From: Segatella copri
GTDB lineage: Bacteria; Bacteroidota; Bacteroidia; Bacteroidales; Bacteroidaceae
Assembly: GCA_959596915.1 (NCBI GenBank)
Contig: CAUFXJ010000010.1
Span: 34,740-98,739, forward strand
Direction: 5' to 3'
DNA: 64,000 nt
Numbering within the stretch: the first letter of the stretch is position 1; every line of letters starts with the position of its first letter. The translations under genes were made by a program, and so were the position numbers. The notes beneath the pieces are model-generated. The model was not told the origin of the DNA, searched no databases, and worked only from the letters and a program-made list of their open reading frames with translations. Positions 2,037 through 62,200 of the stretch are shown piece after piece.

Positions 2037-3536
2037 TTATCTAACCAGTTTTCTAATTTTCCTAAAACTAAACGATGTACTCATGAGTACAATGATTACG
2101 CCAATCAGCCAGTAAAGCCAATCACGATAACTGATCATGAAAACCAGGAACAACATCAAGAGCAGAATCAGAAGCTGAAAGATACAGAATCTGAAACCAA
2201 GAGCGGATAACCGATAACCATAAACGGCTCTGCTGAAAGCCAATACTGCTAAGGTCTCTATGGCATAAGCAACGGCAATACCCCCTCCTACTCCTCTCAA
2301 TCCATCTAACTGATAGCCAGCTATTTCACAGATTATCAGCAAGATAACACAAAAACTTTCCTGAATGAGAAATAGCCTGGAATCGCCTCTTGACAACGGG
2401 AGATATTCTATCGGAAGATAAACGGCCTTGAACAACATGGCAACAGCAGCAAGCTGAGTCATCTGAAGCATCCCCATAAACTGGGCATTGTATAATATCG
2501 GAATAATGAGAGGCAGACCTAAAATGATAGCTGCAACGATAGGCCCCAGCAACAGGACATTCATTTCAAGCTGGCGGTTCACACAGAGATTGCGCTCTTT
2601 AACAGACTCCTCGTTTTTTCTGGAACCCGAAATGCCGGAGAGACGGGGATAAAAATCCTGATCCATGACCGAGAACACCATTCCCGCATAAACAAAGACA
2701 ATCGTTATACCGGCATTGAAAAGTCCAACAACTTCCAGATTGCCTTGTTGGTTCAAAAAGGCACGAATCAGAAATTCGCATCCGCTATTCATCAACCCCG
2801 AAAGTACAAATGCCCCGCCAAGTCGCAAAAGTGGGAAACCTGCAACTAGCGTCATTTTTCGCATATTTACGCCCCACCGTACAACTCGTCGGGAATATCG
2901 AAAATTCAGAGCCCATTGCATAAATGCCAAAATAAACAGAACGGGCAGAATACCTCTCTCACCAAATATCCAATAAACCGGAACCGAAACCAAAAGCAGA
3001 AGAATAGCCAGAAGACTTGCCTGCATCGCCAACGCACGCAACTGTCCGGTAGCTTTCAGAATGGCTGTTTCACCTCCAGCCAGAATCGTGAAGAAAATGG
3101 TTGGTGCCAGGAGAATGAAATGTAGCGTATGATTGCCCCAGGAAAAAGTAAACCCATTGAGTAACGGACCCAGAAGTACACAGACGATGGCTCCGAAAAA
3201 TGCAGCAAGCAGACTATAGGTGCGGACAAGAAGAACCGCCCCGGCGATATCAGCCTTTTCGGACTGCGATTCATCTGCAGCATGTTCCTTTTCAGAAATA
3301 AATTTAACACCACTTGTAGGAATGCCGAAATTACACGCAGAACTGAGAACAGAAATCGTTGAGCTGAAAAGAGACAGCAGTCCCATTCCAGAAGGTCCGA
3401 GGAAGAACGCCGTAAATTTATTGCGCAAAACTCCTACAAGAATTCCCAATCCTTGCACACTGCCAAACAATCCTGTATATTTCAGAATATGCGAATAACT
3501 GTTTTCCTTTTTATCACCCATAATCAAAAGAAACAA
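2037..3536 (-). CDS. oligosaccharide/polysaccharide flippase (Wzx/MOP superfamily) membrane protein
   Basis: ~14 predicted TM helices with polysaccharide-biosynthesis-protein-like topology and length. The true start may be the internal MGDKKEN. Confidence 0.6.
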   Translation of the reverse strand: MFLLIMGDKKENSYSHILKYTGLFGSVQGLGILVGVLRNKFTAFFLGPSGMGLLSLFSSTISVLSSACNFGIPTSGVKFISEKEHAADESQSEKADIAGAVLLVRTYSLLAAFFGAIVCVLLGPLLNGFTFSWGNHTLHFILLAPTIFFTILAGGETAILKATGQLRALAMQASLLAILLLLVSVPVYWIFGERGILPVLFILAFMQWALNFRYSRRVVRWGVNMRKMTLVAGFPLLRLGGAFVLSGLMNSGCEFLIRAFLNQQGNLEVVGLFNAGITIVFVYAGMVFSVMDQDFYPRLSGISGSRKNEESVKERNLCVNRQLEMNVLLLGPIVAAIILGLPLIIPILYNAQFMGMLQMTQLAAVAMLFKAVYLPIEYLPLSRGDSRLFLIQESFCVILLIICEIAGYQLDGLRGVGGGIAVAYAIETLAVLAFSRAVYGYRLSALGFRFCIFQLLILLLMLFLVFMISYRDWLYWLIGVIIVLMSTSFSFRKIRKLVR

Positions 3537-52239: not shown

Positions 52240-54555
52240 ATGAAAAAGATTAAACCCACAAACGAGACCGGAAATAACCCGGAAACAGAAGAGGAGAAAG
52301 AGGCCTTGCCCTCATTTTTCACTAACCTGTTTTCCTCTGCCAGCAACCCGCTCCCTAACAGAGCGGTGCTGGAGTACAACATCATGCATTCGGCACCGGT
52401 AAAAGCCAATACCGAAGGCTACAGGGCGATGATGAAGGTGGACAAGAGAACGGCTGAGGACATCAAGCACCGGCTGCCCTGCATCACTCCCAGCGTGCAG
52501 CTCAAAGGTAATGCCAAGAAGCTGACCGACTTCAGGAAGGAAACCTTCTGGCTGATGCTCGATTATGATGACGTGCCTCCCGAAGACATCGCAGATCTTA
52601 AGAAAAAAGCCCTGAAACAGCGCTTCACCATGGTCTTCTACATCACCGTCTCGGGCAAGGGATTCCGCATCCTGCTCAGATATATGCGGCCTGAAGGATG
52701 CAATCTCACTGCCACCGAACTCCACCTGCTCGCCATCAGAAAAGCCATGAGCATGTACGATAAACTGCTGGGTATCAGCAGCGACAAACAATGCCAGGAT
52801 ATGGTGAGAAGCTGCGGACTGGCTTACGACCCCGAGGCTTACTTCAACTGGAATGCCGAAGTTCTCCCCATCACCCGGGAGGAGGTGGAGAACTTCGAAA
52901 AAGCTACAAAGCAACAGGAGGAACAGAAAAGGAAAAGGCAGACGGAGGCTGAAAAAACCAGAAAGAAAAGCCCGCGCAAACAGGAAGACGAGGCGCCAGC
53001 CAAAACGCTCACCACCGAAGAGATTCTGCAGTATGTAGACAAACTGGCGGAGAGCTGGGAAGAGCGGTTTGAGGAGCATCATCACAACAGCTACGTAGTG
53101 AGATACGCCACATTCTGCCTCTGTTTCGGAGCCGAAAAGGAGGAGGCTGTGAAACACATGGCAGATAAGTTTGGCGGCGAATATGCCGATACCGAGCGGG
53201 TGGCACGGGAGATTTACAAGCATACCGAGCGGCTGGGAACCTGGAAGATAAGACAGCAGGGAGATGAGGAGCAGAAACGCTATACCAGCATGAGAGCACT
53301 GCTGGGATGGCTGGGAGCCCGATATGAAATGCACCACAACACGCTGAGCAACCAGTATGAAGTGCGCGCCATCAACACCGGAGAGAAACTCTATCTCGAC
53401 TGGACCGAAGTGGATACCCGGGTGAGCAATTCCCTGTTCGTGAAGATGGAACTGGATAACATCTGCACCACCCAGAAAAAGCTGGATACAGTAATCAGAA
53501 GTAACTTCAGTCCCGAATTCAACCCCATGGAGGAATATCTGAAGAGTCTGCCGAAATGGGACCGAAAGACTGACCATATCGCAGAATTGGCCCATCGGGT
53601 AACCGTGATGCAGACCGGCGGTTACCGCCATACGGAGGAGGATTTTGCCTATGCCTTCAGGAAATGGCTGGTCAACATGGTGGTTTGCTGGGTTCGCCCC
53701 GATGTCACCAACCAGTCTATCATGGTTTTCGTAGGCAAGGGCGGCATCTTCAAGACCACGTTTTTCGACCATCTTCTGCCGGCCCATCTGCGCAAGTATT
53801 TCGCCAACGATTCTACGGGCGACTACAAGAACAAGGATTTCCTGCAGATGTGTGCCAGCAAGGCGATAGTGTGTCTCGATGAGTTCAGCTGTCTGCGCGG
53901 CAAGAACCTGGATTCCTTCAAGAGCAACATCACAAAGCGCAACATCAGCATGCGAATCCCTTATGCCGAGTGGGACTGCATTCTGCAGAACAATGCGGGG
54001 TTCTGTGCCACGAGCAATGAGATTCATATCATCGATGATGACGAGAACCGCCGTTTCCTCATCTGGCGCATCGAGAAGATCAAGAGTCCCATCGACTTCC
54101 CCTTCAATTACGAGGGCATCTACTCCCAGGCTGTGTCACTGGCTCAGGAGGTGATAGAGAAGCGCCGGAGGGGTGAGCACTGCGACTGGGTTTACTGGTT
54201 TACGAAGGAGGAGAACGAGGAGATTCAGCGCCACAATCTTTATTTCCGTGTAAACAACTACATAGCCGAGCGCATCAACAAGTTCTACCGTGTTCCTGAT
54301 GCCGATACGCCGCCCGAGTTCTGCAAGTTTGTTACGGCGAGTGATGTGATGGAGCGCATCTGCACGAACCCCGCCTTCCGCCAGTCGATGTCGAACAAGG
54401 ATATATCGATGTTCATGGAGGCGCTGGGGTTCAAGAAGATTCACCGCAAGACGGGCAACGGCTGGAAGGTGATAGAAATGCGTCCGGACGAGATAGAGAA
54501 CAACCAGAAGATGGATGGCAGCGAGAATATTCCGCCCGAAGATCTCCCATTTTAG
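52240..54555 (+). CDS. primase/NTPase-like protein of mobile elements (VirE/DUF3987-P4 primase C-terminal P-loop type)
   Basis: 771 aa. A central Lys/Glu/Arg-rich linker, a C-terminal P-loop-like VFVGKGGIFKTTFFD and a downstream DExx-like LDEFS. Architecture typical of Bacteroidales mobile-element primases. The antisense 571-aa ORF was rejected. Confidence 0.5.
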   Translation: MKKIKPTNETGNNPETEEEKEALPSFFTNLFSSASNPLPNRAVLEYNIMHSAPVKANTEGYRAMMKVDKRTAEDIKHRLPCITPSVQLKGNAKKLTDFRKETFWLMLDYDDVPPEDIADLKKKALKQRFTMVFYITVSGKGFRILLRYMRPEGCNLTATELHLLAIRKAMSMYDKLLGISSDKQCQDMVRSCGLAYDPEAYFNWNAEVLPITREEVENFEKATKQQEEQKRKRQTEAEKTRKKSPRKQEDEAPAKTLTTEEILQYVDKLAESWEERFEEHHHNSYVVRYATFCLCFGAEKEEAVKHMADKFGGEYADTERVAREIYKHTERLGTWKIRQQGDEEQKRYTSMRALLGWLGARYEMHHNTLSNQYEVRAINTGEKLYLDWTEVDTRVSNSLFVKMELDNICTTQKKLDTVIRSNFSPEFNPMEEYLKSLPKWDRKTDHIAELAHRVTVMQTGGYRHTEEDFAYAFRKWLVNMVVCWVRPDVTNQSIMVFVGKGGIFKTTFFDHLLPAHLRKYFANDSTGDYKNKDFLQMCASKAIVCLDEFSCLRGKNLDSFKSNITKRNISMRIPYAEWDCILQNNAGFCATSNEIHIIDDDENRRFLIWRIEKIKSPIDFPFNYEGIYSQAVSLAQEVIEKRRRGEHCDWVYWFTKEENEEIQRHNLYFRVNNYIAERINKFYRVPDADTPPEFCKFVTASDVMERICTNPAFRQSMSNKDISMFMEALGFKKIHRKTGNGWKVIEMRPDEIENNQKMDGSENIPPEDLPF

Positions 54556-54565
54556 GAAATTCTGC

Positions 54566-54625
54566 TTCGGAGATATTTCCGTATCTTTCGGAGATATTTC
54601 CGTATCTTTCGGAGGGATTTTATTA
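54566..54625. repeat. tandem 21-bp repeats (cggagatatttccgtatcttt x ~2.7)
   Basis: Read directly. The core tatctttcggagatatt is shared with the repeat at 1951-2010. Confidence 0.8.
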
Positions 54626-54699
54626 TGATTCGGAGAGATTTTATACTACCAGGCAGAAGAAAGAAGCAACTGACAAAAACAGACTAAAAAGAACAAATT

Positions 54700-54912
54700 A
54701 TGATAGAAGACAGAAGTTACGGGAAGGCAGAGCTCGCCATGCTCTACTTTCCCACCGCTACCCCCAGGGTAGCGCTCAACCGGCTGGTGAGATGGATCAA
54801 CCGGTGCCCCGAGCTCAAGCAGAGCCTCTGTTCGGGCTACGCCGGCAAGTTTTCCCACTTCTACACCCGGCAACAAGTAGCAGAAATCATCGAATTTCTG
54901 GATGAACCATAA
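54700..54912 (+). CDS. DUF4248 domain-containing protein
   Basis: 70 aa with the family-typical ..LAMLYFP..RVALNRLVRWINRCPEL.. Commonly adjacent to primase genes in Bacteroidales elements. Confidence 0.6.
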   Translation: MIEDRSYGKAELAMLYFPTATPRVALNRLVRWINRCPELKQSLCSGYAGKFSHFYTRQQVAEIIEFLDEP

Positions 54913-54998
54913 AAAAAACACCCTGGAAGGGAATGCATACAACACACTATGCATATCCCTTTCAGGGTGAGTTTATTATAGGAAAAAATACCCGTTTT

Positions 54999-56600
54999 TT
55001 AAACGCTTTTGCCCTTAGACTTCCAGTCGTCAATCGTCCCCGTCTTAGACGAGAAATTGCAGCCTATCAGGTAAATCGTTCTGTTGTCTGTAGCATACTC
55101 ACGGGCATATCCTTTTTCCTCGATTTGTTTCAAGGCTTCAGTCGCTGACCCATCACGTTTAAATTCGAAGATATATACAAACATTGGGGTCTCAATAATG
55201 CAATCAACCCGTCCTTCACTTTGCTCCTTTTCTATTAGAACGGTAAAACTGCTTATCATGCGAATCACCAGATAGAAGGTATATTGAAAGTATCGCTCTT
55301 TTTCCCGTTCGTCATCTTTGCGTCGCTGACTATATGGTATACTGGCGAAGAAGGAAGTGAGTAATTTCTCCAATTTGTCACAATCTCCCATCTTCATCGT
55401 ATTAACAACTTCTACGACCCAAGCGTCAGGCGATTCCTTGGGCTTCAGATAGTTGGCAGCCACCATGGTTACGAAGCCAGCTTTTACTTCATCGTTTGGA
55501 AAATCCAAGAGATAAGAATCGGTATCCATGTTCCAATCCTTAATGGTGAGATAACCACTCTGGTAAATCATTGGCAATGGAGCCTCTGTATCCGCCTTGT
55601 AATCTATAAAACTGCTGGTAGGATAAAATTTCCCTGTCAGTTCATTGAGGTTTTCGTCGAAGTGAGCTAATAAGCGGACCAGATAAGTAGGCGAACCTGT
55701 ACGGAACCAGAAATCACTCAGGATTTTCTTACTCAGTGAGTTCAAGATACTGAAAGGATTGTAGATGTCGAGCATGCTTGGGCTGAAATGGTAACCGTCA
55801 TATTTGCGCTTGAGCCGATATTTCATCTCATCCTCAGACACTTTATATCTTGCAGCCATTGCCTTGATTTGCTCATCAAAGACAGAATACAGTTCCTCTT
55901 CCGTGATGCCGCAAAGAGCCTCGTAGCGGTCGTCCATGCTGATGTCATCTGGTTGGTTGAAACCACTGAATACGCTTACTTGCGAGAACTTGGTAACACC
56001 AGTCAACAGCACGAATTTCAAATCTTTGTCAGCAGCCTTGAAGACACTGTAGAAACCTTTCATAATCTCGCGATGTCGGTCTTCCAGCAAACGTTCGTTG
56101 CCTTCAGAATCGAAGGTCTTTAACCCTGTGTCTAAAACATCCAGTAAAGGTTTGTCATATTCATCAATCAGGACAACGGCGCCAAGTCCTGTCTTTTCAT
56201 GGGCAGCTTTCAAAACAGCCATAAATCTGTCTCCCAAGGTGTTGGCCAATGGGTTTCTGCCATAATTCAGTTCTTGGGTTTCAACAAAAGTCTGCAAGGT
56301 TTTTTCCAATTCGCCTGCCTGTGTGAAATTCTTGCCGTTGAAATCTATATGAAAAACCGGATATTGCTTCCATTCTTTTTCTAACTGTTCGATGGCAAGT
56401 CCTTTAAACAGTTCTTTCTTTCCTTGGAAGTAGCATTCCAGGGTAGAAATCAACAACGACTTTCCGAATCGTCTTGGACGACTCAGAAAATATATATTCC
56501 CATTGTGTACTAAATCATAAATCAAGTCTGTCTTGTCAAGATAGACATAACCATCATCTCTGATTTTTCCAAAGTCTTGTATACCTATAGGATATTTCAT
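54999..56600 (-). CDS. AAA-ATPase-like (DUF1703) + PD-(D/E)XK nuclease-like domain protein
   Basis: N-terminal motif ..FGKIRDDGYVYLDKTDLIYDLV..LSRPRRFGKSLLISTLE.. (the Bacteroidales 'AAA-ATPase-like' family), with a C-terminal PDDEXK_9-like region. ~533 aa. Confidence 0.7.
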   Translation of the reverse strand: MKYPIGIQDFGKIRDDGYVYLDKTDLIYDLVHNGNIYFLSRPRRFGKSLLISTLECYFQGKKELFKGLAIEQLEKEWKQYPVFHIDFNGKNFTQAGELEKTLQTFVETQELNYGRNPLANTLGDRFMAVLKAAHEKTGLGAVVLIDEYDKPLLDVLDTGLKTFDSEGNERLLEDRHREIMKGFYSVFKAADKDLKFVLLTGVTKFSQVSVFSGFNQPDDISMDDRYEALCGITEEELYSVFDEQIKAMAARYKVSEDEMKYRLKRKYDGYHFSPSMLDIYNPFSILNSLSKKILSDFWFRTGSPTYLVRLLAHFDENLNELTGKFYPTSSFIDYKADTEAPLPMIYQSGYLTIKDWNMDTDSYLLDFPNDEVKAGFVTMVAANYLKPKESPDAWVVEVVNTMKMGDCDKLEKLLTSFFASIPYSQRRKDDEREKERYFQYTFYLVIRMISSFTVLIEKEQSEGRVDCIIETPMFVYIFEFKRDGSATEALKQIEEKGYAREYATDNRTIYLIGCNFSSKTGTIDDWKSKGKSV

Positions 56601-56929
56601 ATTGTTGCTTTTTATTGAATTTTTGGCAAAGTTACGAAAAAAGTTGGTATCTGCAAAATAATGCGGAATAAAATGTCTTTATTTTCAGATAAAAGCAATT
56701 CTTATGCTATATATCCCTGCGCTCCGCTCTACATCGTTGAAAGTTCAGTAACATAAAAAAATACCACTTTTTTCAACCTTTTTTTCCCGAATCCCTGCAA
56801 ATCGCACAAATCGCATAGTTGGGGGTTCGGGAATGTTGTATCTTTGTATCGTCAATCAGAGAGGTTGATGCAGCAACGGTTTCGGCGGAGACACTGACTG
56901 CTTTTTACTAAAACTAAATTTTTAAAAGT

Positions 56930-57502
56930 ATGATTCTCATCAAATTAGCGAAGAACAAGAACAAGACAATCAAGGAAGCGTATGGCAAGTATTATGCGCG
57001 ACCAGTAGTAACAGAAACCATCGGTATCGATGAACTCGCCGAACACATGGCGAGCCACAACACCCCGTTCTCGAAGGGTGCCATCAAGGGCCTTCTCTCC
57101 GATATGGTGAGCTGTGTGAAGGAGCTCGTGCTCCAGAATAAGGCAGTGAAGATAGACAACCTCGCCATCTTCTCCATCGGCATCATCAACAAGATGGGAG
57201 CCGCCAGCATCAAGGAGTGGAGCCTCGCCAAGTTTGTAGAAGGCTACCGCCTCAGAGCCCGTGCTACCGGCAAGCTCAGCAACACCCAGCTCTCTCTCGA
57301 TGCCAACGCCAAGAACGCCATGGATCTCCTCAACTCTAGCGAGAGCGCTGCAGGCGATACCACCACTGGCGATACCACACAGGGCGGCGGAACCACTGAG
57401 GGCGGCGGAACCACTGGGGGCGGCGGAACATCACAAGGCGGCGGTACATCACAAGGCGGCAGCACCGACGGAACAGGCGACAACGGAGACGGCCTGGAGT
57501 AG
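56930..57502 (+). CDS. HU-family (Bac_DNA_binding-like) DNA-binding protein with Gly/Thr-rich repetitive C-terminal tail
   Basis: N-terminal HU-like fold (..KLAKNKNKTIKEAYGKYYARPV..). The C-terminal 50 aa is TTGGG repeats encoded by ~4 tandem 18-21-bp units at ~57383-57466. Confidence 0.6.
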   Translation: MILIKLAKNKNKTIKEAYGKYYARPVVTETIGIDELAEHMASHNTPFSKGAIKGLLSDMVSCVKELVLQNKAVKIDNLAIFSIGIINKMGAASIKEWSLAKFVEGYRLRARATGKLSNTQLSLDANAKNAMDLLNSSESAAGDTTTGDTTQGGGTTEGGGTTGGGGTSQGGGTSQGGSTDGTGDNGDGLE

Positions 57503-57788
57503 TGATCCATCTCTCAAATATGCGAAACGACAGAAGAAGGAAGGAGTGAACTGACCGGCGACAGGGATATTCCGAAGGCACAAAGCGGCTGGTTTTCATC
57601 CTGACGATTACGGATAAACAGCAAATCATAATGACCCAAGAACCTGCCTTTTACGGGTATCCGGGCTGGCAGTTTCTCCCCCGCCCTTCTTCTTCCAGAA
57701 ACGCTTACTGAAACTAAATTTCAACCACTAAAACAAGCATGTGACTATCATTATCCACTTAGTATTAATCATTAAAAAACAAAGCAAA

Positions 57789-57878
57789 ATGAAAAAAGTA
57801 AATTGGAAAACCATCATCAATTTCCTCATCACGGTATTAACAGCTGTAGCCAGCTCATTCTGTGTACAGAACTGCTAA
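57789..57878 (+). CDS. 29-aa single-TM peptide (MKKVNWKTIINFLITVLTAVASSFCVQNC), holin-like?
   Basis: Unlisted short ORF with ATG start and a hydrophobic helix. Ends 16 bp before the amidase ATG. Confidence 0.35.
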   Translation: MKKVNWKTIINFLITVLTAVASSFCVQNC

Positions 57879-57894
57879 AAGAAGGGAGGTTGCC

Positions 57895-58332
57895 ATGACA
57901 CAGAAACATCGTAGCATTTCACTCATCGTGATCCACTGTTCAGCCACGAGAGTGACTCAGGATTTCACATTCGAGCAGTTGGAGGCCTGCCATCTTGCCC
58001 GCGGTTTCAAGAGTATCGGCTATCATTATTACATCACGAAGGATGGTGTGGTATATCCGGGTCGTCCGGAATCGGAGGTAGGAGCCCATGCCCGTCATTA
58101 CAATGCCCACAGCATCGGCATCTGTTATGAGGGAGGTCTCGACAAGAACGGCAAGCCTGCCGATACGCGTACTCCAGCCCAGAATCAAGCTCTGTATTCG
58201 CTTCTGGAGAGCCTCAGCCTCTCCTATCCAGATGCAGAGATACTGGGCCATCGCGATTTGCCGAACGTTCACAAAGACTGTCCGTCGTTTGATGTCAAGC
58301 GATGGCTGAAGTTGGTAGATTTCCACATCTAG
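57895..58332 (+). CDS. N-acetylmuramoyl-L-alanine amidase (Amidase_2/PGRP, T7-lysozyme-like)
   Basis: Zinc-binding residues of the Amidase_2 fold (..IHCSAT..H..GYHY..CPSFD). Start chosen at MTQKH. Confidence 0.8.
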   Translation: MTQKHRSISLIVIHCSATRVTQDFTFEQLEACHLARGFKSIGYHYYITKDGVVYPGRPESEVGAHARHYNAHSIGICYEGGLDKNGKPADTRTPAQNQALYSLLESLSLSYPDAEILGHRDLPNVHKDCPSFDVKRWLKLVDFHI

Positions 58333-58365
58333 CCGAAGCCAGAGAATATAGATGTCTATACTTAG

Positions 58366-58405
58366 AAAATTACTAAAAAAGGGTGTGTCATGCAGTTATG
58401 ACACA
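58366..58405 (+). terminator. terminator hairpin (aaaaaagggtgtgtcatgcagttatgacacacccttttt)
   Basis: Inverted repeat plus T-run after the amidase stop. Related to the hairpins at 8262 and 49932. Confidence 0.75.
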
Positions 58406-58487
58406 CCCTTTTTCTGTTTTAAGAACATAAACGCAGGCTCGTAAGTCAGCTAGGCGTATTAGAAAGAAACTCATCAACAAAAGATTT

Positions 58488-58742
58488 TCATATCCCATAT
58501 TTTTCTTCCAGATACTCATCACGCAGTTCTTTATCACTTTTATCTGAAGCGAACATGCCGCCCATTTCTTCCCAACTGAACATTTTTGACTCAGCAGGAG
58601 CTTTCATATCTTCCTTTTCAGATATATCAACAACAATTTTTTGCAGGATTTTATTTACCCAATCCTCAATATTAAGTTTATCTTTTCTTGCAAAGATTGC
58701 CGCTTTGTCATATACATTTGGTCTTAATGTAATTGTTGCCAT
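58488..58742 (-). CDS. hypothetical small acidic protein
   Basis: ORF only. An N-terminal beta-strand-like segment followed by helices, possibly RHH-like. Weak. Confidence 0.35.
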   Translation of the reverse strand: MATITLRPNVYDKAAIFARKDKLNIEDWVNKILQKIVVDISEKEDMKAPAESKMFSWEEMGGMFASDKSDKELRDEYLEEKYGI

Positions 58743-58852
58743 AATAATCTTTTTCTATTTATCAATTGCAAAACTACATTTTTTTATTGAAAGTGCCAAA
58801 TGAATTTGAAAAAAAATGCATTATTTTACTCTTTTTCCTCATATAACGGAAT

Positions 58853-58910
58853 TTTTCCCGAATCCCTGCTTATCGTACAAATCTCTCAAATATACGCAAC
58901 GACAGAAGAA
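58853..58910. repeat. 'ghost' copy of HU-locus flanks: 5' flank (cf. 56781-56812) fused directly to 3' flank (cf. 57512-57538)
   Basis: tttttcccgaatccctgcTTatcgTacaaatc|tctcaaatatAcgCaacgacagaagaa matches the sequences immediately upstream and downstream of the HU CDS with ~5 mismatches. Confidence 0.7.
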
Positions 58911-59292
58911 AATTGGATTGCATTGTATTTATTTTTTAAGTTGATTCAAGCCCCACAGGTAGTATTCCTGCGGGGCTTTTTCTTTTTCATCGGCGTTATA
59001 TGAACTATTTATCAGAAAAATCATATACGAAAATGGAAAAAATAGCATCAATTTGTAAGAATGTGAAAAAAAAAGTGCAGAATTAACATTTAAAAGAGGT
59101 TATTTTTCGAAAAATATGTTATCTTTGCAGAAGATAAGCTGCACTCGGCAATTTGAAAGCAAGCTTTCATTGCGCTCATTTGCATTATCTTTGCAAACTA
59201 TATATAGCAAGAACTTGCAGAAACATGCACAATAAAAAGCAAGAGCTTGCAGAAAAAAAATAGAATATAGAATACAAGAAAAAATAAACTTT

Positions 59293-62200
59293 ATGCAAAA
59301 AAATCAATTTACCCCTAGCGCTTGCCGCTGGATTTTGCTAGGTTGTTGCCTCACCCCTCCATCACTTGCCTCGATACAGGCACAGAATGTGAATGGGAAC
59401 GCAGCAGCCCAAACAGAAATTACTGTCAAGCAAGGAGTGATAGAGGGAAAAGTTTTCGATAGCGGTGACCATGAACCCATGATTGGTGTAACCGTAGCTA
59501 TCGAAGGTACAACCAACGCCGTAACGACAGACATCGACGGACACTTCGAACTGCCTGTCAGGAAAGAGTGCAACATCGTACTCTCCTTCATCGGCTATAA
59601 AAAGACAATAATCCGATTTACAGGCAGTAACCATGGCGACTTTGCCCGCATCATGATGAAATCTGAAGCCCAGAGTATCAAGGATGTGGTGGTTACAGGT
59701 GTGTACCGACGCAAGAAGGAAAGCTTTACAGGTTCTTCGGCTACCTTCAAGGGCGATGAACTCAAGAGCGTAGGTGCACAGAACGTGCTCCAAAGTCTGA
59801 AGACCCTGGACCCATCTTTCAAGATTATGGACAACGCACTCTCAGGATCTAACCCTAACAAGATGCCTGACGTGGAAATCCGTGGCAAGTCGAGCGTGGC
59901 GGGACTGAAGGAGGAATACGGTTCCGACCCTAACCAGCCGCTCTTTATTCTGGATGGCTTCGAAACAACCCTGGAAACCGTGATGAACCTCAACATGAAC
60001 CGCGTAGCATCGGTTACGCTGCTCAAGGATGCCGCATCTACAGCCATCTATGGTTCAAAAGCTGCCAACGGTGTGGTTGTTATCGAGACCAAAGCACCGG
60101 TAAAGGGTAAGCTGCAGATTTCATATAAGGGCGACTACAGTCTGGATTTCGCTGACCTTTCAGACTACAATCTGATGAACTCCCGCGAAAAGTTGGAGTT
60201 CGAAAAACTGGCAGGCGTATACAAGGACAATACCAATGATCCGTTCAACCAGATCAAGTTGGATAATCTCTACAATTCCCGTCTGCGCGATATCGAGCAG
60301 GGCGTAGATACCTACTGGCTCAGTGTGCCTCTGCGCACCGGATTCACCCATAAGCACAACGTATATGCCGAAGGTGGAGAAGGCAACGTGAGATACGGAC
60401 TGGGACTTAACTTCGGACAGGTGAACGGCGTGATGAAGGGCTCAGACCGCCAGACTCTGGGCGGAAACCTCGACCTGATTTACCGCACCGGCAAATTCCA
60501 GTTCAGTAACAAACTCTCCATCGACTATCTGGAGACCAACAACCCGACCGTTAGTTTCTCGGAATATGCCTATGCCAACCCATATTACAGAAAGTATGGG
60601 GCCGACGGCAAAATCAACAAGTATCTTTACTATCCGGAAGAGGGGCTGAATGACAACCCTGTATCAAACCCACTCTGGAATGCGCATCTCAACAACTACG
60701 ACAAGGGACAGCGTTTCGGCTTTACCAACAACTTCATCGCCGAATGGTTTGCTACAGATGATCTCCGTGTGCGTGGCAAGTTCGGTATCACCAAGTATGA
60801 TGATACCCAGGACAAGCGCCTCTCGCCAGAGCATACCGATTTCGATGACCAGGAAGCAACCCAGAAGGGACTGTTCAAGCACAGCCTGCAGAAATATCTC
60901 TACTACGAAGGCGACCTTTCTGCCACCTACGGCAAGCTGATAGCAGAGAAGCATCAGATAAACGCCGTATTGGGTTTCAACTTCAGCAATACCACCAGCA
61001 AGACCAATGGCTACTCAGCCACCGGTTTTACCGACGACCAGTTTGATGCCCCATCCTTTGCCAACAACTACCCTACAGGCGGCAAACCAAGCTACAGCGA
61101 AAACATCAAGCATGCCTCCAGTTTCTATCTGAACGGTGGCTATGCCTACGACAACCGCTATCTGCTGGACTTCAACCTGCGCAACGATGGTGCCTCAATG
61201 TTTGGCACCGACAACCGGTTCCGTACCACCTGGTCAGTAGGTCTGGGTTGGAATATCCACAACGAAGAATGGATGCAGGAGAACGGCATCTTCCAGATGC
61301 TCAAGCTGCGTGCCTCAGTGGGTAATCCGGGCAACCAGAACTTCTCTGCCTATCAGGCTTATACCACCTATATGTTCAACAGTCTGATGACCAACGTATT
61401 CGGTACCGGTGTCATCATCAACAGCTTGGGCAACAACGATCTGGCATGGCAGGAGACCATCAACTACAACGTGGGAGCCGATATCACCACGCTGGGCAAC
61501 CGACTGAATCTGACGCTTGATTACTACATCAAGAACACCGACCCATTGCTCGCCATCATCACCACCCCAGGTTCTATGGGTGTAACGAGCGAGGCTCTGA
61601 ATGCCGGTAAGCAGAAGACCAACGGATGGGAAGCCACCATCAAGTTCTCTCCTATTTATATGCCTCATGAGCGCATCAACTGGAATATCTCGCTGAGTGC
61701 CACCCACTCCAAGTCGAAATATGCCAACATAGGCAATGCCTTCAGCGCACTGAACGAGAGCGGAAAGACTGGACTTCACAACACCACCCGCTATTACGAC
61801 GGCGGTAGTCCTACCGCCATCTGGGCAGTACGCTCTGCGGGCATCGATCCTGCCACAGGTAAGGAGCTGTTCATCAAGCGCGACGGCACCTATTCGTTTA
61901 CCTATGATGCCAGCGACGAGGTAGTATGCGGCGATACCGAGCCGGATGTAGAAGGCTTGCTGGGAACCACCTTCTATTACAAGGGATTCTCATTCAGCTG
62001 TTTCTTCCGCTACCAGTATGGCGGCCAGCTCTTCAACAGTTCGCTCTTCGACAAGGTAGAGAACATCGGAACAGCCGACATCTACAACAACCAGGACCGC
62101 CGTGCCCTCTACGACCGCTGGAGCATCAACAACCGCAATGCCCAGTTCAAGGGCATCTCGATGGTACAGAAGACCGACAAGTCATCCCGCTTCGTAATGG

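Follow-up and report, generated by a model that had tools for sequence, protein, structure and literature searches.

A non-coding segment that lies downstream of an intact HU-HIG/smalltalk/amidase operon in Segatella copri, here called the ghost, is probably the skeleton of a former additional copy of that operon. The segment was found in a 64,000-bp stretch of S. copri DNA (the window). A preliminary description of the window had reported that the two flanks of the HU gene recur downstream of it, fused to each other and with the HU segment missing, and had offered two explanations: either a second HU copy was deleted by recombination between short repeats, or the HU gene is a cassette inserted in a repeated element, the ghost being its empty site. 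The homology blocks, their order, their junctions, their distribution in the population and the presence of intact tandem duplicates of the module in a relative were all directly observed.

The ghost and the intact operon

The features of the locus are listed in Table 1. Pairwise alignment of both flanks with the intact copy confirmed that a ghost segment exists downstream of the HU gene. U′ is identical to U, the 32-bp element upstream of the HU-HIG gene, at 29 of 32 positions (90.6%), and the 18-mer TTTTTCCCGAATCCCTGC has two occurrences in the window, whereas 0.08 are expected from shuffled sequences. D′ shares 80% identity over 45 bp with D, which lies past the HU stop codon, and its 27-bp core (58884-58910 versus 57512-57538) is identical at 25 positions, with two mismatches (0.00 expected from shuffles). 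The two blocks overlap by a common ATC at 58881-58883. In the intact copy, U and D are separated by 699 bp (56813-57511) that carry the core promoter, the 5′UTR and the HU coding sequence, and all of this is absent in the ghost.

Table 1. Features of the intact operon, the cargo slot and the ghost (positions in the window)
Feature	Position	Strand	Description
U	56781..56812	+	Promoter-upstream element of intact HU, located ~27-58 bp 5′ of the -7 box; member of a multi-copy S. copri family, TTTCCCGAATCC-N11-ACAAATC
HU promoter and 5′UTR	56813..56929	+	Core promoter, with GCATAGTTGG in the -33 region and TATCTTTG as -7 box (56839-56846), followed by the 5′UTR; not in the ghost
HU	56930..57502	+	Coding sequence of the HU-HIG family DNA-binding protein, 190 aa with a Gly/Thr-rich tail; missing in the ghost
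D	57509..57553	+	Start of the HU 3′UTR; contains GAAGAAGGAAGG, the 5′ arm of a long hairpin closing at ~57690
Operon remainder	57554..58337	+	Intergenic hairpin, smalltalk/DUF6486 (57789-57878) and Amidase_2 (57895-58332); without counterpart in the ghost
T1	58376..58413	.	Perfect palindromic bidirectional terminator 3′ of the amidase gene; variant-2 strains have a further copy, T1′, after the ghost
DUF6364-like gene	58488..58742	-	84 aa, probably an antitoxin; located in the cargo slot that precedes the ghost
U′	58852..58883	+	Ghost copy of U; HU-class CCCTGC signature; without -33 and -7 elements
D′	58881..58925	+	Ghost copy of D, with identity decaying after the core; joined to U′ via ATC
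T2	58926..59023	+	Terminator region (hairpin 58948-58978 and U-run); third collinear block of the relic

The fusion of the two flanks and the 27-bp match given in the preliminary description are real, but the ghost starts one base earlier, D′ runs ~15 bp further at lower identity, and the homologous relic is larger than was reported, reaching ~59023. Homology with the intact copy begins abruptly at 58852; an extension upstream to the boundary of the slot was discarded, as 233 of 1000 shuffled sequences scored as well. On the downstream side, the relic continues into T2. This terminator region directly follows the amidase stop codon in strains G8, H-2632 and HDD04 (module 1), and the segment 58926-59023 matches the sequence after the amidase stop of HDD04 module 1 with 93.9% identity over 99 bp, while its region matches the post-amidase sequence of G8 with 95.9% identity over 222 bp. 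U′, D′ and the post-amidase terminator thus stand in operon order, all on the + strand and collinear with the intact copy. Because the relic continues into T2, the ghost can be described as an operon skeleton, composed of an upstream element, a post-HU stub and a post-amidase terminator.

The intact HU gene belongs to a recurrent module with the order primase/VapE, DUF4248, HU, smalltalk and amidase. Immediately 5′ of U lies an insertion hot spot, in which some strains carry integrase or IS200 genes. The varied cargo occupies this side of U (54985-56748) and does not fall between U and D. A PADLOC scan of the slot cargo and HU detected no known defence family, and only the primase protein matched PrimPol/VirE-type models. 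The DUF6364-like gene in the slot upstream of the ghost has a PIN partner in other strains, which is gone in the window; the lineage of the window lost it by a ~410-bp deletion between ACAAAAGA repeats. The intergenic region between HU and smalltalk folds in the window into a long closing stem, with a z score of only -1.26. A conserved structured RNA was considered here and rejected, since unrelated hairpins or tandem repeats replace this region across lineages, and we treat it as a variable 3′UTR hairpin.

Distribution of the ghost and of its blocks in other genomes

Six GTDB species-level genomes of the S. copri complex carry the ghost, as do 29 metagenome contigs, and the ATC junction is identical in all 35 further copies examined. 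The HU/amidase module had been described as having undergone recent duplication and decay; duplication and decay probably hold, but since the same junction is carried by six species-level genomes and 29 metagenome contigs, the ghost is old rather than recent. In a second variant (five genomes and two metagenome contigs), the same U′/D′ junction is followed by a 75-bp second copy of T1 (90-93% identity), so that this variant likewise consists of upstream element, post-HU stub and post-amidase terminator.

The arrangement in S. copri HDD04 is module 1, T2, AAA-ATPase, module 2, T1, PIN, DUF6364 and ghost; that is, two intact tandem modules are present and the ghost is the last unit of the array. 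Strain G8 also has two modules, at separate loci. Ghost-free alleles were observed in both terminator contexts: the order is amidase, T2 and SusC in G8, with T2 also right after the amidase stop in H-2632, and amidase, T1 and a YitT-like gene in N016-9, HF1825 and gSpreadC_ID_2961. No intermediate, partly decayed allele was detected in a metagenome scan anchored just outside U′, in which 18 of 18 hits were complete ghosts, and no partial ghost was present among six genome and 11 ENA copies, all 17 being complete, although their absence in a sample of this kind does not exclude them. Both flanks of the block 56691-59137 differ in one further genome, and we considered whether this whole block is a portable unit; an insertion slot upstream of U together with a downstream rearrangement explains the difference better.

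U had 94 matches in 185,579 species genomes, and a match to D was present at 28 loci. The two complete S. copri genomes G8 and HDD04 carry six and five copies of U, respectively, which stand in front of unrelated genes; arrays of a 21-bp repeat often precede members of the U family. The family pattern had 82 matches in Segatella/Prevotella, 76 of which run on as GCATA(G/A)...TATCTTTG; the only six that do not are ghosts. Forty-nine of the 76 continuous U-promoter copies are located in front of non-HU genes. In HU orthologues with 75-77% identity, from two other genomes, U is kept upstream of the promoter, so its association with HU is ancestral; the HU orthologues of other Prevotella lineages combine U with an unrelated 3′ flank. 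D, at its 28 loci, is found only beside class-A HU genes or in ghosts, and among these U and D matches only HU or nothing lies between the two blocks. The preliminary description had reasoned that flank motifs that occur frequently and independently would make their juxtaposition uninformative. U is indeed frequent and independent, but D is not, and the U′ of the ghost carries the CCCTGC variant that is specific to class-A HU, so that the juxtaposition remains informative. A chance encounter of two common regulatory motifs was rejected, because only U is common.

Origin of the ghost and its possible activity

We infer that a full copy of the operon once stood at the position of the ghost, and that the events occurred in the following order. 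A tandem duplication of the module (U, promoter, HU, D stub, hairpin, smalltalk, amidase and terminator) would have come first, with a small opposite-strand cargo, the PIN-DUF6364 toxin-antitoxin, presumably occupying the slot that precedes the extra copy. The genes of the extra copy would then have been lost through RecA-independent deletions between very short direct repeats, by replication slippage or by illegitimate recombination. The first of these may have removed the 699 bp between the two ATC, and with it the core promoter, the 5′UTR and HU. The second, of ~0.8 kb, would have extended from the purine run GAAGAA in D to a GAA-rich leader just past the amidase stop, taking out the hairpin, smalltalk and the amidase, and leaving U′, D′ and the terminator as the remainder. 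At the second junction the microhomology is GAAGAA versus CCGAA or GGAAAGAA; all junctions have short microhomology only, and the PIN deletion is a third of the same type.

The collinear blocks in the same orientation, the ATC microhomology, the third block formed by the post-amidase terminator, and the intact tandem duplicates of HDD04 argue for the deletion of a second copy, as the first of the two early explanations had it. The second ghost variant, the ghost-free alleles and the documented duplication and loss of HU-HIG genes speak for it as well. Against it stand the failure to find intermediate alleles among the copies scanned and the abrupt start of homology at 58852. All four deletion end-points are, moreover, non-coding, with non-coding DNA making up ~33% of the operon (538/1,639 bp, from gene coordinates); one would not quite expect this from random decay, unless selection acts against truncated genes. 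Furthermore, the two variants share the D′ end-point but differ in the terminator, which needs either a recurrent deletion at the purine-rich GAAGAA hot spot or one more illegitimate event, and both histories fit.

The non-coding end-points would fit an origin in which a full second copy never existed. A replication fork could have switched template at microhomologies (MMBIR/FoSTeS-like) during PIN-DUF6364 insertion, or during break repair downstream of the amidase gene, and copied snippets of ~30-75 bp (U, D and, in variant 2, T1) from the operon, which lies at a distance of 1-2 kb. Such a patchwork is compatible with the shortness and nearby source of the patches, with joins at microhomologies of 3-8 bp, with the abrupt start of homology and with the absence of partial-gene intermediates from the 35 further copies. 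However, in the HDD04 array, in which cargo on the - strand alternates with modules on the + strand, the ghost sits exactly where a module is expected, and the third block in the window, T2, natively flanks the SusC-side module downstream and is not a copied snippet. Template switching merely permits the strict collinearity and orientation that the deletion model requires, and to our knowledge serial switching of this kind is rarely documented in bacteria; we consider it unlikely. The view that the 699-bp promoter and HU segment is mobile and inserts between U and D, the ghost being an unoccupied target, has in its favour the clean joint of the flanks with a 3-bp repeat and the insertion hot spot just upstream of U. 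The supposed left end, however, falls inside a promoter region that is continuous in the 76 copies described above, D is tied to HU genes and ghosts, the varied cargo is located on the other side of U, and the orthologues with U and an unrelated 3′ flank do not fit. In addition, neither terminal repeats nor a dedicated recombinase are present in the module, and no repeat longer than 3 bp exists at the junction. The cassette proposal was consequently abandoned as extremely improbable.

It is very unlikely that U′-D′ has been kept for a function, either as a promoter-less operator or decoy for a putative U-family factor, which might act on the divergent DUF6364 promoter ~70-80 bp away, or as the body of a small RNA that ends at T2. 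The conservation of U upstream of the promoters of unrelated genes, the presence of the ghost with few changes in the six species-level genomes and many metagenomes, and a strong hairpin with a U-run 65 bp downstream are consistent with retention. TAnnTTTG is the -7 consensus of Bacteroidetes, and no such box follows U′ on the + strand before T2; a core promoter is likewise missing after U′. The RNA fold is not exceptional (z = -1.47). At gathering thresholds Rfam gave nothing in the whole window, and an E-value scan of 56600-59300 placed RF04312 (trpB-motif) over T2 with 28.9 bits, below the gathering score of 59 (E = 0.27), a match that was rejected as chance. A small RNA gene is very unlikely on these grounds, despite the terminator hairpin. 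The variability of the ghost (3/61 sites) is not below that of the flanking DNA (8/255 coding and 3/109 intergenic sites, all small counts), so that no extra conservation is apparent; moreover, some strains lack the whole segment, and variant 2 has a different terminator after D′. Gene callers annotate the scar as a 67-aa hypothetical protein; this ORF has no Pfam match, and no credible ORF was found in the ghost. With neither a -33/-7 promoter nor a credible ORF, and with only half of the 3′UTR hairpin left, the relic as it stands most likely does nothing, as judged from its sequence.

The occurrence of U upstream of unrelated promoters suggests a candidate protein-binding site. The U family might serve as operator for an as yet uncharacterised regulator in S. 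copri, with HU-HIG, a TonB-dependent receptor, an AraC-like regulator and a short unknown transcript under its joint control, and the U′ of the ghost might be kept as a decoy or as a remote operator for the DUF6364/PIN promoter. We regard this proposal as quite unlikely; if it were true, the relic would be co-opted and not inert. In any case, this multi-copy promoter-upstream element of S. copri, to which the ghost drew attention, may merit a study of its own.

Comparison with known systems

The ghost itself matters little. It is, however, a clear example of how tandem HU-amidase modules of Bacteroidales are made and then erased by short-repeat deletions that leave non-coding scars, it identifies a place in the genome of a major human gut species where duplications, insertions and deletions cluster, and it cautions that joined flanks with a missing insert should not be taken as evidence of a cassette system.

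Gene relics that arise by RecA-independent deletion between short direct repeats are known from classic studies of E. coli lacI and of plasmids. As in the ghost locus, such deletions are bounded by repeats of 3-9 bp, the flanks keep their original order and orientation, the product is non-functional, and several events may accumulate in one locus (here the first deletion, the second deletion and the loss of PIN). Unlike in those relics, the deletions in the ghost took the coding parts exactly, leaving the non-coding boundaries of the operon, and the ghost persists across several species-level lineages. Microhomology-mediated break-induced replication and other template-switch rearrangements join short segments templated from nearby DNA at microhomologies, and the ghost resembles them in both respects; in contrast to them, its blocks are strictly collinear at the position of a tandem module, and simple deletions explain it equally well. 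The empty sites of mobile cassettes (integron attI/attC, MITE or IS) are superficially similar, in that the flanks are joined and the insert is missing, but recombination-site repeats, a recombinase and alternative cargo are all missing from the ghost, and its junction falls within a promoter region that is uninterrupted at other sites. The ghost is an ordinary relic of genome decay and not a gene-cassette system.

According to Burroughs et al. 2017 (PMC5499826), HU-HIG genes in Bacteroidetes have undergone rampant lineage-specific expansion, with adjacent recent duplicates and with gene loss even between close relatives, and their linkage in operons is hardly conserved at all. The intact gene of the window is a member of this family with a glycine-rich tail. 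Unlike the genes of that survey, it sits in a recurrent module, and here it was the whole operon, not HU alone, that was duplicated and decayed.

The fused copy of the HU flanks

In this Segatella (Prevotella) copri locus, the sequences flanking the HU-HIG gene upstream (U) and downstream (D) recur, fused, beyond the HU-HIG/smalltalk/Amidase_2 operon (hereafter, the module), which bears out the preliminary description with small corrections. The upstream copy, U′ (58852-58883), is identical to U (56781-56812) at 29 of 32 positions. The downstream copy, D′ (58881-58925), shares 80% identity with D (57509-57553) over 45 bp, with 2 mismatches in its 27-bp core (58884-58910), and the two blocks share ATC at their overlap. 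In the intact copy, U and D are separated by 699 bp (56813-57511) containing the -33 region, the -7 box TATCTTTG (56839-56846; the Bacteroidetes consensus is TAnnTTTG), the 5′UTR and the HU-HIG gene. Both motifs occur at these two sites only in the 64-kb window (shuffle expectation 0.08 for U and 0.00 for D). A 67-aa ORF (58800-59003) annotated by metagenome gene callers over this "ghost" and the T2 terminator gave no match in a family search, and is almost certainly spurious.

Features of the HU-HIG locus and its ghost (window coordinates)
Feature	Position	Strand
Primase/helicase (BT4734-like_N + VapE)	52240-54555	
DUF4248	54700-54912	
AAA-ATPase/PDDEXK_9 gene	54999-56600	opposite
U and HU promoter	56781-56929	
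HU-HIG	56930-57502	
286-bp spacer, D at its start	57503-57788	
smalltalk/DUF6486	57789-57878	
Amidase_2	57895-58332	
T1, palindromic terminator	58376-58413	
DUF6364-like gene	58488-58742	opposite
Ghost (U′ + D′)	58852-58925	
T2, second terminator hairpin	58948-58978	
SusC-like gene	from 59293	

The order primase, DUF4248, HU, smalltalk, amidase was found again in other Prevotella lineages. HU-HIG proteins matching over their full length have 166 to 211 aa and an N-terminal domain that is 95-99% identical; the Gly/Thr-rich C-terminal tail (57340-57480) differs in repeat number among strains. The region upstream of SusC carries repeated promoter-like boxes, TATCTTTGCA; ∼77 bp of it (59119-59195) are tandemly duplicated in some strains (L004, L007 and L010), and ∼55 bp (59130-59184) are absent in L008.

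Distribution of the U and D elements

The pattern TTTCCCGAATCC-N11-ACAAATC, which covers U, U′ and the orthologous site at a 77%-identical HU locus, was scanned in one genome per species (185,579 species). There were 94 matches, 82 of them in the S. copri complex or Prevotella; the other 12 were scattered among unrelated phyla and are due to chance. Complete genomes contained 6 (strain G8) and 5 (strain HDD04) copies. Since 76 of the 82 copies run on as GCATA(G/A), ∼20 nt and TATCTTTG, U is a promoter-upstream element, and the point where ghost and intact copy diverge falls inside a conserved promoter region, not at the end of an element. The 6 copies without this continuation all belong to ghosts, in which TCTCAAATAT comes after U. 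The genes it serves are unrelated: HU-HIG accounts for 27 copies, which carry a CCCTGC variant specific to this class (class A), a short unknown unit preceding a Bax1-I gene for 22, a TonB-dependent receptor for 17 and an AraC-like regulator for 10. It also precedes the promoter of HU loci with 75-77% protein identity (L012, L111), and hence is ancestral to the HU promoter. U plus promoter (56781-56846; L020, L029, L037, L077 and others) is ∼75-90% identical among promoters of unrelated genes, and in some classes the similarity extends to the first 5′UTR hairpin; the family represents either the operator of a regulon or a promoter module that has been duplicated.

The window also has a 21-bp tandem repeat (TATCTTTCGGAGATA + 6 nt), of which four units lie in an array after the primase stop and before DUF4248 (54561-54638), and three are clustered near position 1953 (1953-2009). 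At other S. copri loci (e.g., L020, 1390-1505) arrays of ∼4-6 units lie immediately upstream of U, at the promoters of the TonB receptor, the AraC-like regulator and the unknown unit. In one S. copri MAG (L094, oriented ∼3000-3140) U/promoter is partly duplicated, with CTGCAAATCGCACAAATCGCATAGTTGGGGG recurring after a 30-bp insert, a further sign of slippage at this site.

Apart from ghosts, D was found only immediately after HU genes of class A. It opens the HU 3′UTR, where it supplies the 5′ arm of a long hairpin. The HU-to-smalltalk spacer (also in L012, L019, L110 and L111) always contains some strong hairpin or repeat, of unrelated sequence between lineages; examples include a long closing stem that contains a 100-nt insert, a plain 14-bp hairpin and tandem 30-bp repeats. 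An Rfam search matched no family, and a conserved RNA family was rejected because unrelated hairpins or repeats replace the spacer in other lineages. The spacer is a variable 3′UTR structure, which could serve for attenuation or processing between HU and the lysis-like genes.

Extent, age and surroundings of the relic

In G8, H-2632 and HDD04 (module 1) the amidase stop is immediately followed by the sequence of window 58915/58926-59023 and beyond, including T2. The window ghost therefore consists of U′, D′ and the normal post-amidase leader and terminator, with D's GAAGAA run joined, at a second junction, to the GAA-rich leader 3′ of the amidase stop. A second variant (5 genomes, 2 metagenome contigs) has the identical U′/D′ junction, followed instead by a second T1 copy of 75 bp (T1′; 90-93% identical). 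What each variant retains is the skeleton of an operon (upstream element, stub after HU, terminator after the amidase), and the relic is larger than was first described.

The event had been called recent. The same junction is, however, shared by six GTDB species-level genomes and 29 metagenome contigs (11 ENA, 18 JGI); ghost and intact flanks differ at 3-5 of 59 core positions, and the two intact modules of G8 differ by 28 mismatches and 19 gap positions over 1,514 aligned columns (96.9% identity). Among 11 distinct haplotypes there was no sign of special constraint on the ghost, although counts are small (variable sites: ghost 3/61, DUF6364 gene 8/255, spacer 3/109). Taken together, these data place the event as old relative to strain diversification.

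HDD04 carries module 1, T2, AAA-ATPase, module 2, T1, PIN, DUF6364, ghost and T1′, in this order; it is a tandem array with opposite-strand cargo before each unit and the ghost as last unit. The two intact modules of G8 lie at different loci, one being followed by T2 and SusC with no ghost, the other by T1, PIN, DUF6364, ghost, T1′ and a YitT-like gene. In N016-9, HF1825 and one MAG, module and T1 lead directly to the YitT-like gene, with neither the toxin-antitoxin pair nor the ghost, and contigs L113, L118 and L130 keep the ghost and have lost the entire second module, which would lie between AAA-ATPase and DUF6364. The DUF6364-like gene, an orphan in the window, elsewhere overlaps the start of a 153-aa PIN-domain gene (HDD04 contig L026, 839-1300), and the two are likely a toxin-antitoxin pair. 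In the window lineage PIN was removed by a ∼410-bp deletion between ACAAAAGA repeats (58473-58488); other contigs with the T2 variant still have it. Between DUF4248 and U (54985-56748) lies a variable insertion slot. In the window it is occupied by the AAA-ATPase/PDDEXK_9 gene; L001/L009 have two small ORFs there, one of them HTH-like, L004 has a Y1 transposase of IS200 type, and L002 has the end of an element that bears an integrase. In L076 the slot is empty. These differences in modules, cargo and PIN mark the locus as a hot spot for duplications, insertions and deletions between short repeats.

Origin of the ghost

Two readings had been offered, deletion of a second HU copy and insertion of HU as a cassette, with the ghost as the empty site. 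The microhomology junction, the collinear skeleton and the intact tandem modules of HDD04 support the former, and tandem duplication of the module followed by microhomology-mediated deletions is probably how the ghost arose. One deletion would have taken out promoter and HU, and another hairpin, smalltalk and amidase. This explanation has weaknesses: a metagenome scan anchored just outside U′ found no intermediate alleles, all four end-points are non-coding, and the T2 and T1′ variants require either that deletion recurred at a purine-rich hot spot or that a further illegitimate event took place. That the ghost is instead a template-switch patchwork, a full copy never having been present, appears unlikely. 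The cassette reading is contradicted by where U and D occur and is highly improbable; the defining features of cassette systems were looked for and not found, and membership of any such system was rejected.

The relic lacks the core promoter and a credible ORF, and keeps half of the 3′UTR hairpin; judged by its sequence, it is regarded as inert as it stands. A role as operator, decoy or small RNA that kept the relic in place would fit either origin, duplication with deletion or template switching, but we consider it improbable. Of greater interest than the ghost are the by-products of the analysis: the multi-copy U promoter-upstream element, its associated 21-bp repeat arrays and the plasticity of the locus. 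The ghost pattern agrees with classic deletion between short direct repeats, and also with the expansion and loss dynamics documented for HU-HIG genes in Bacteroidetes (PMC5499826).
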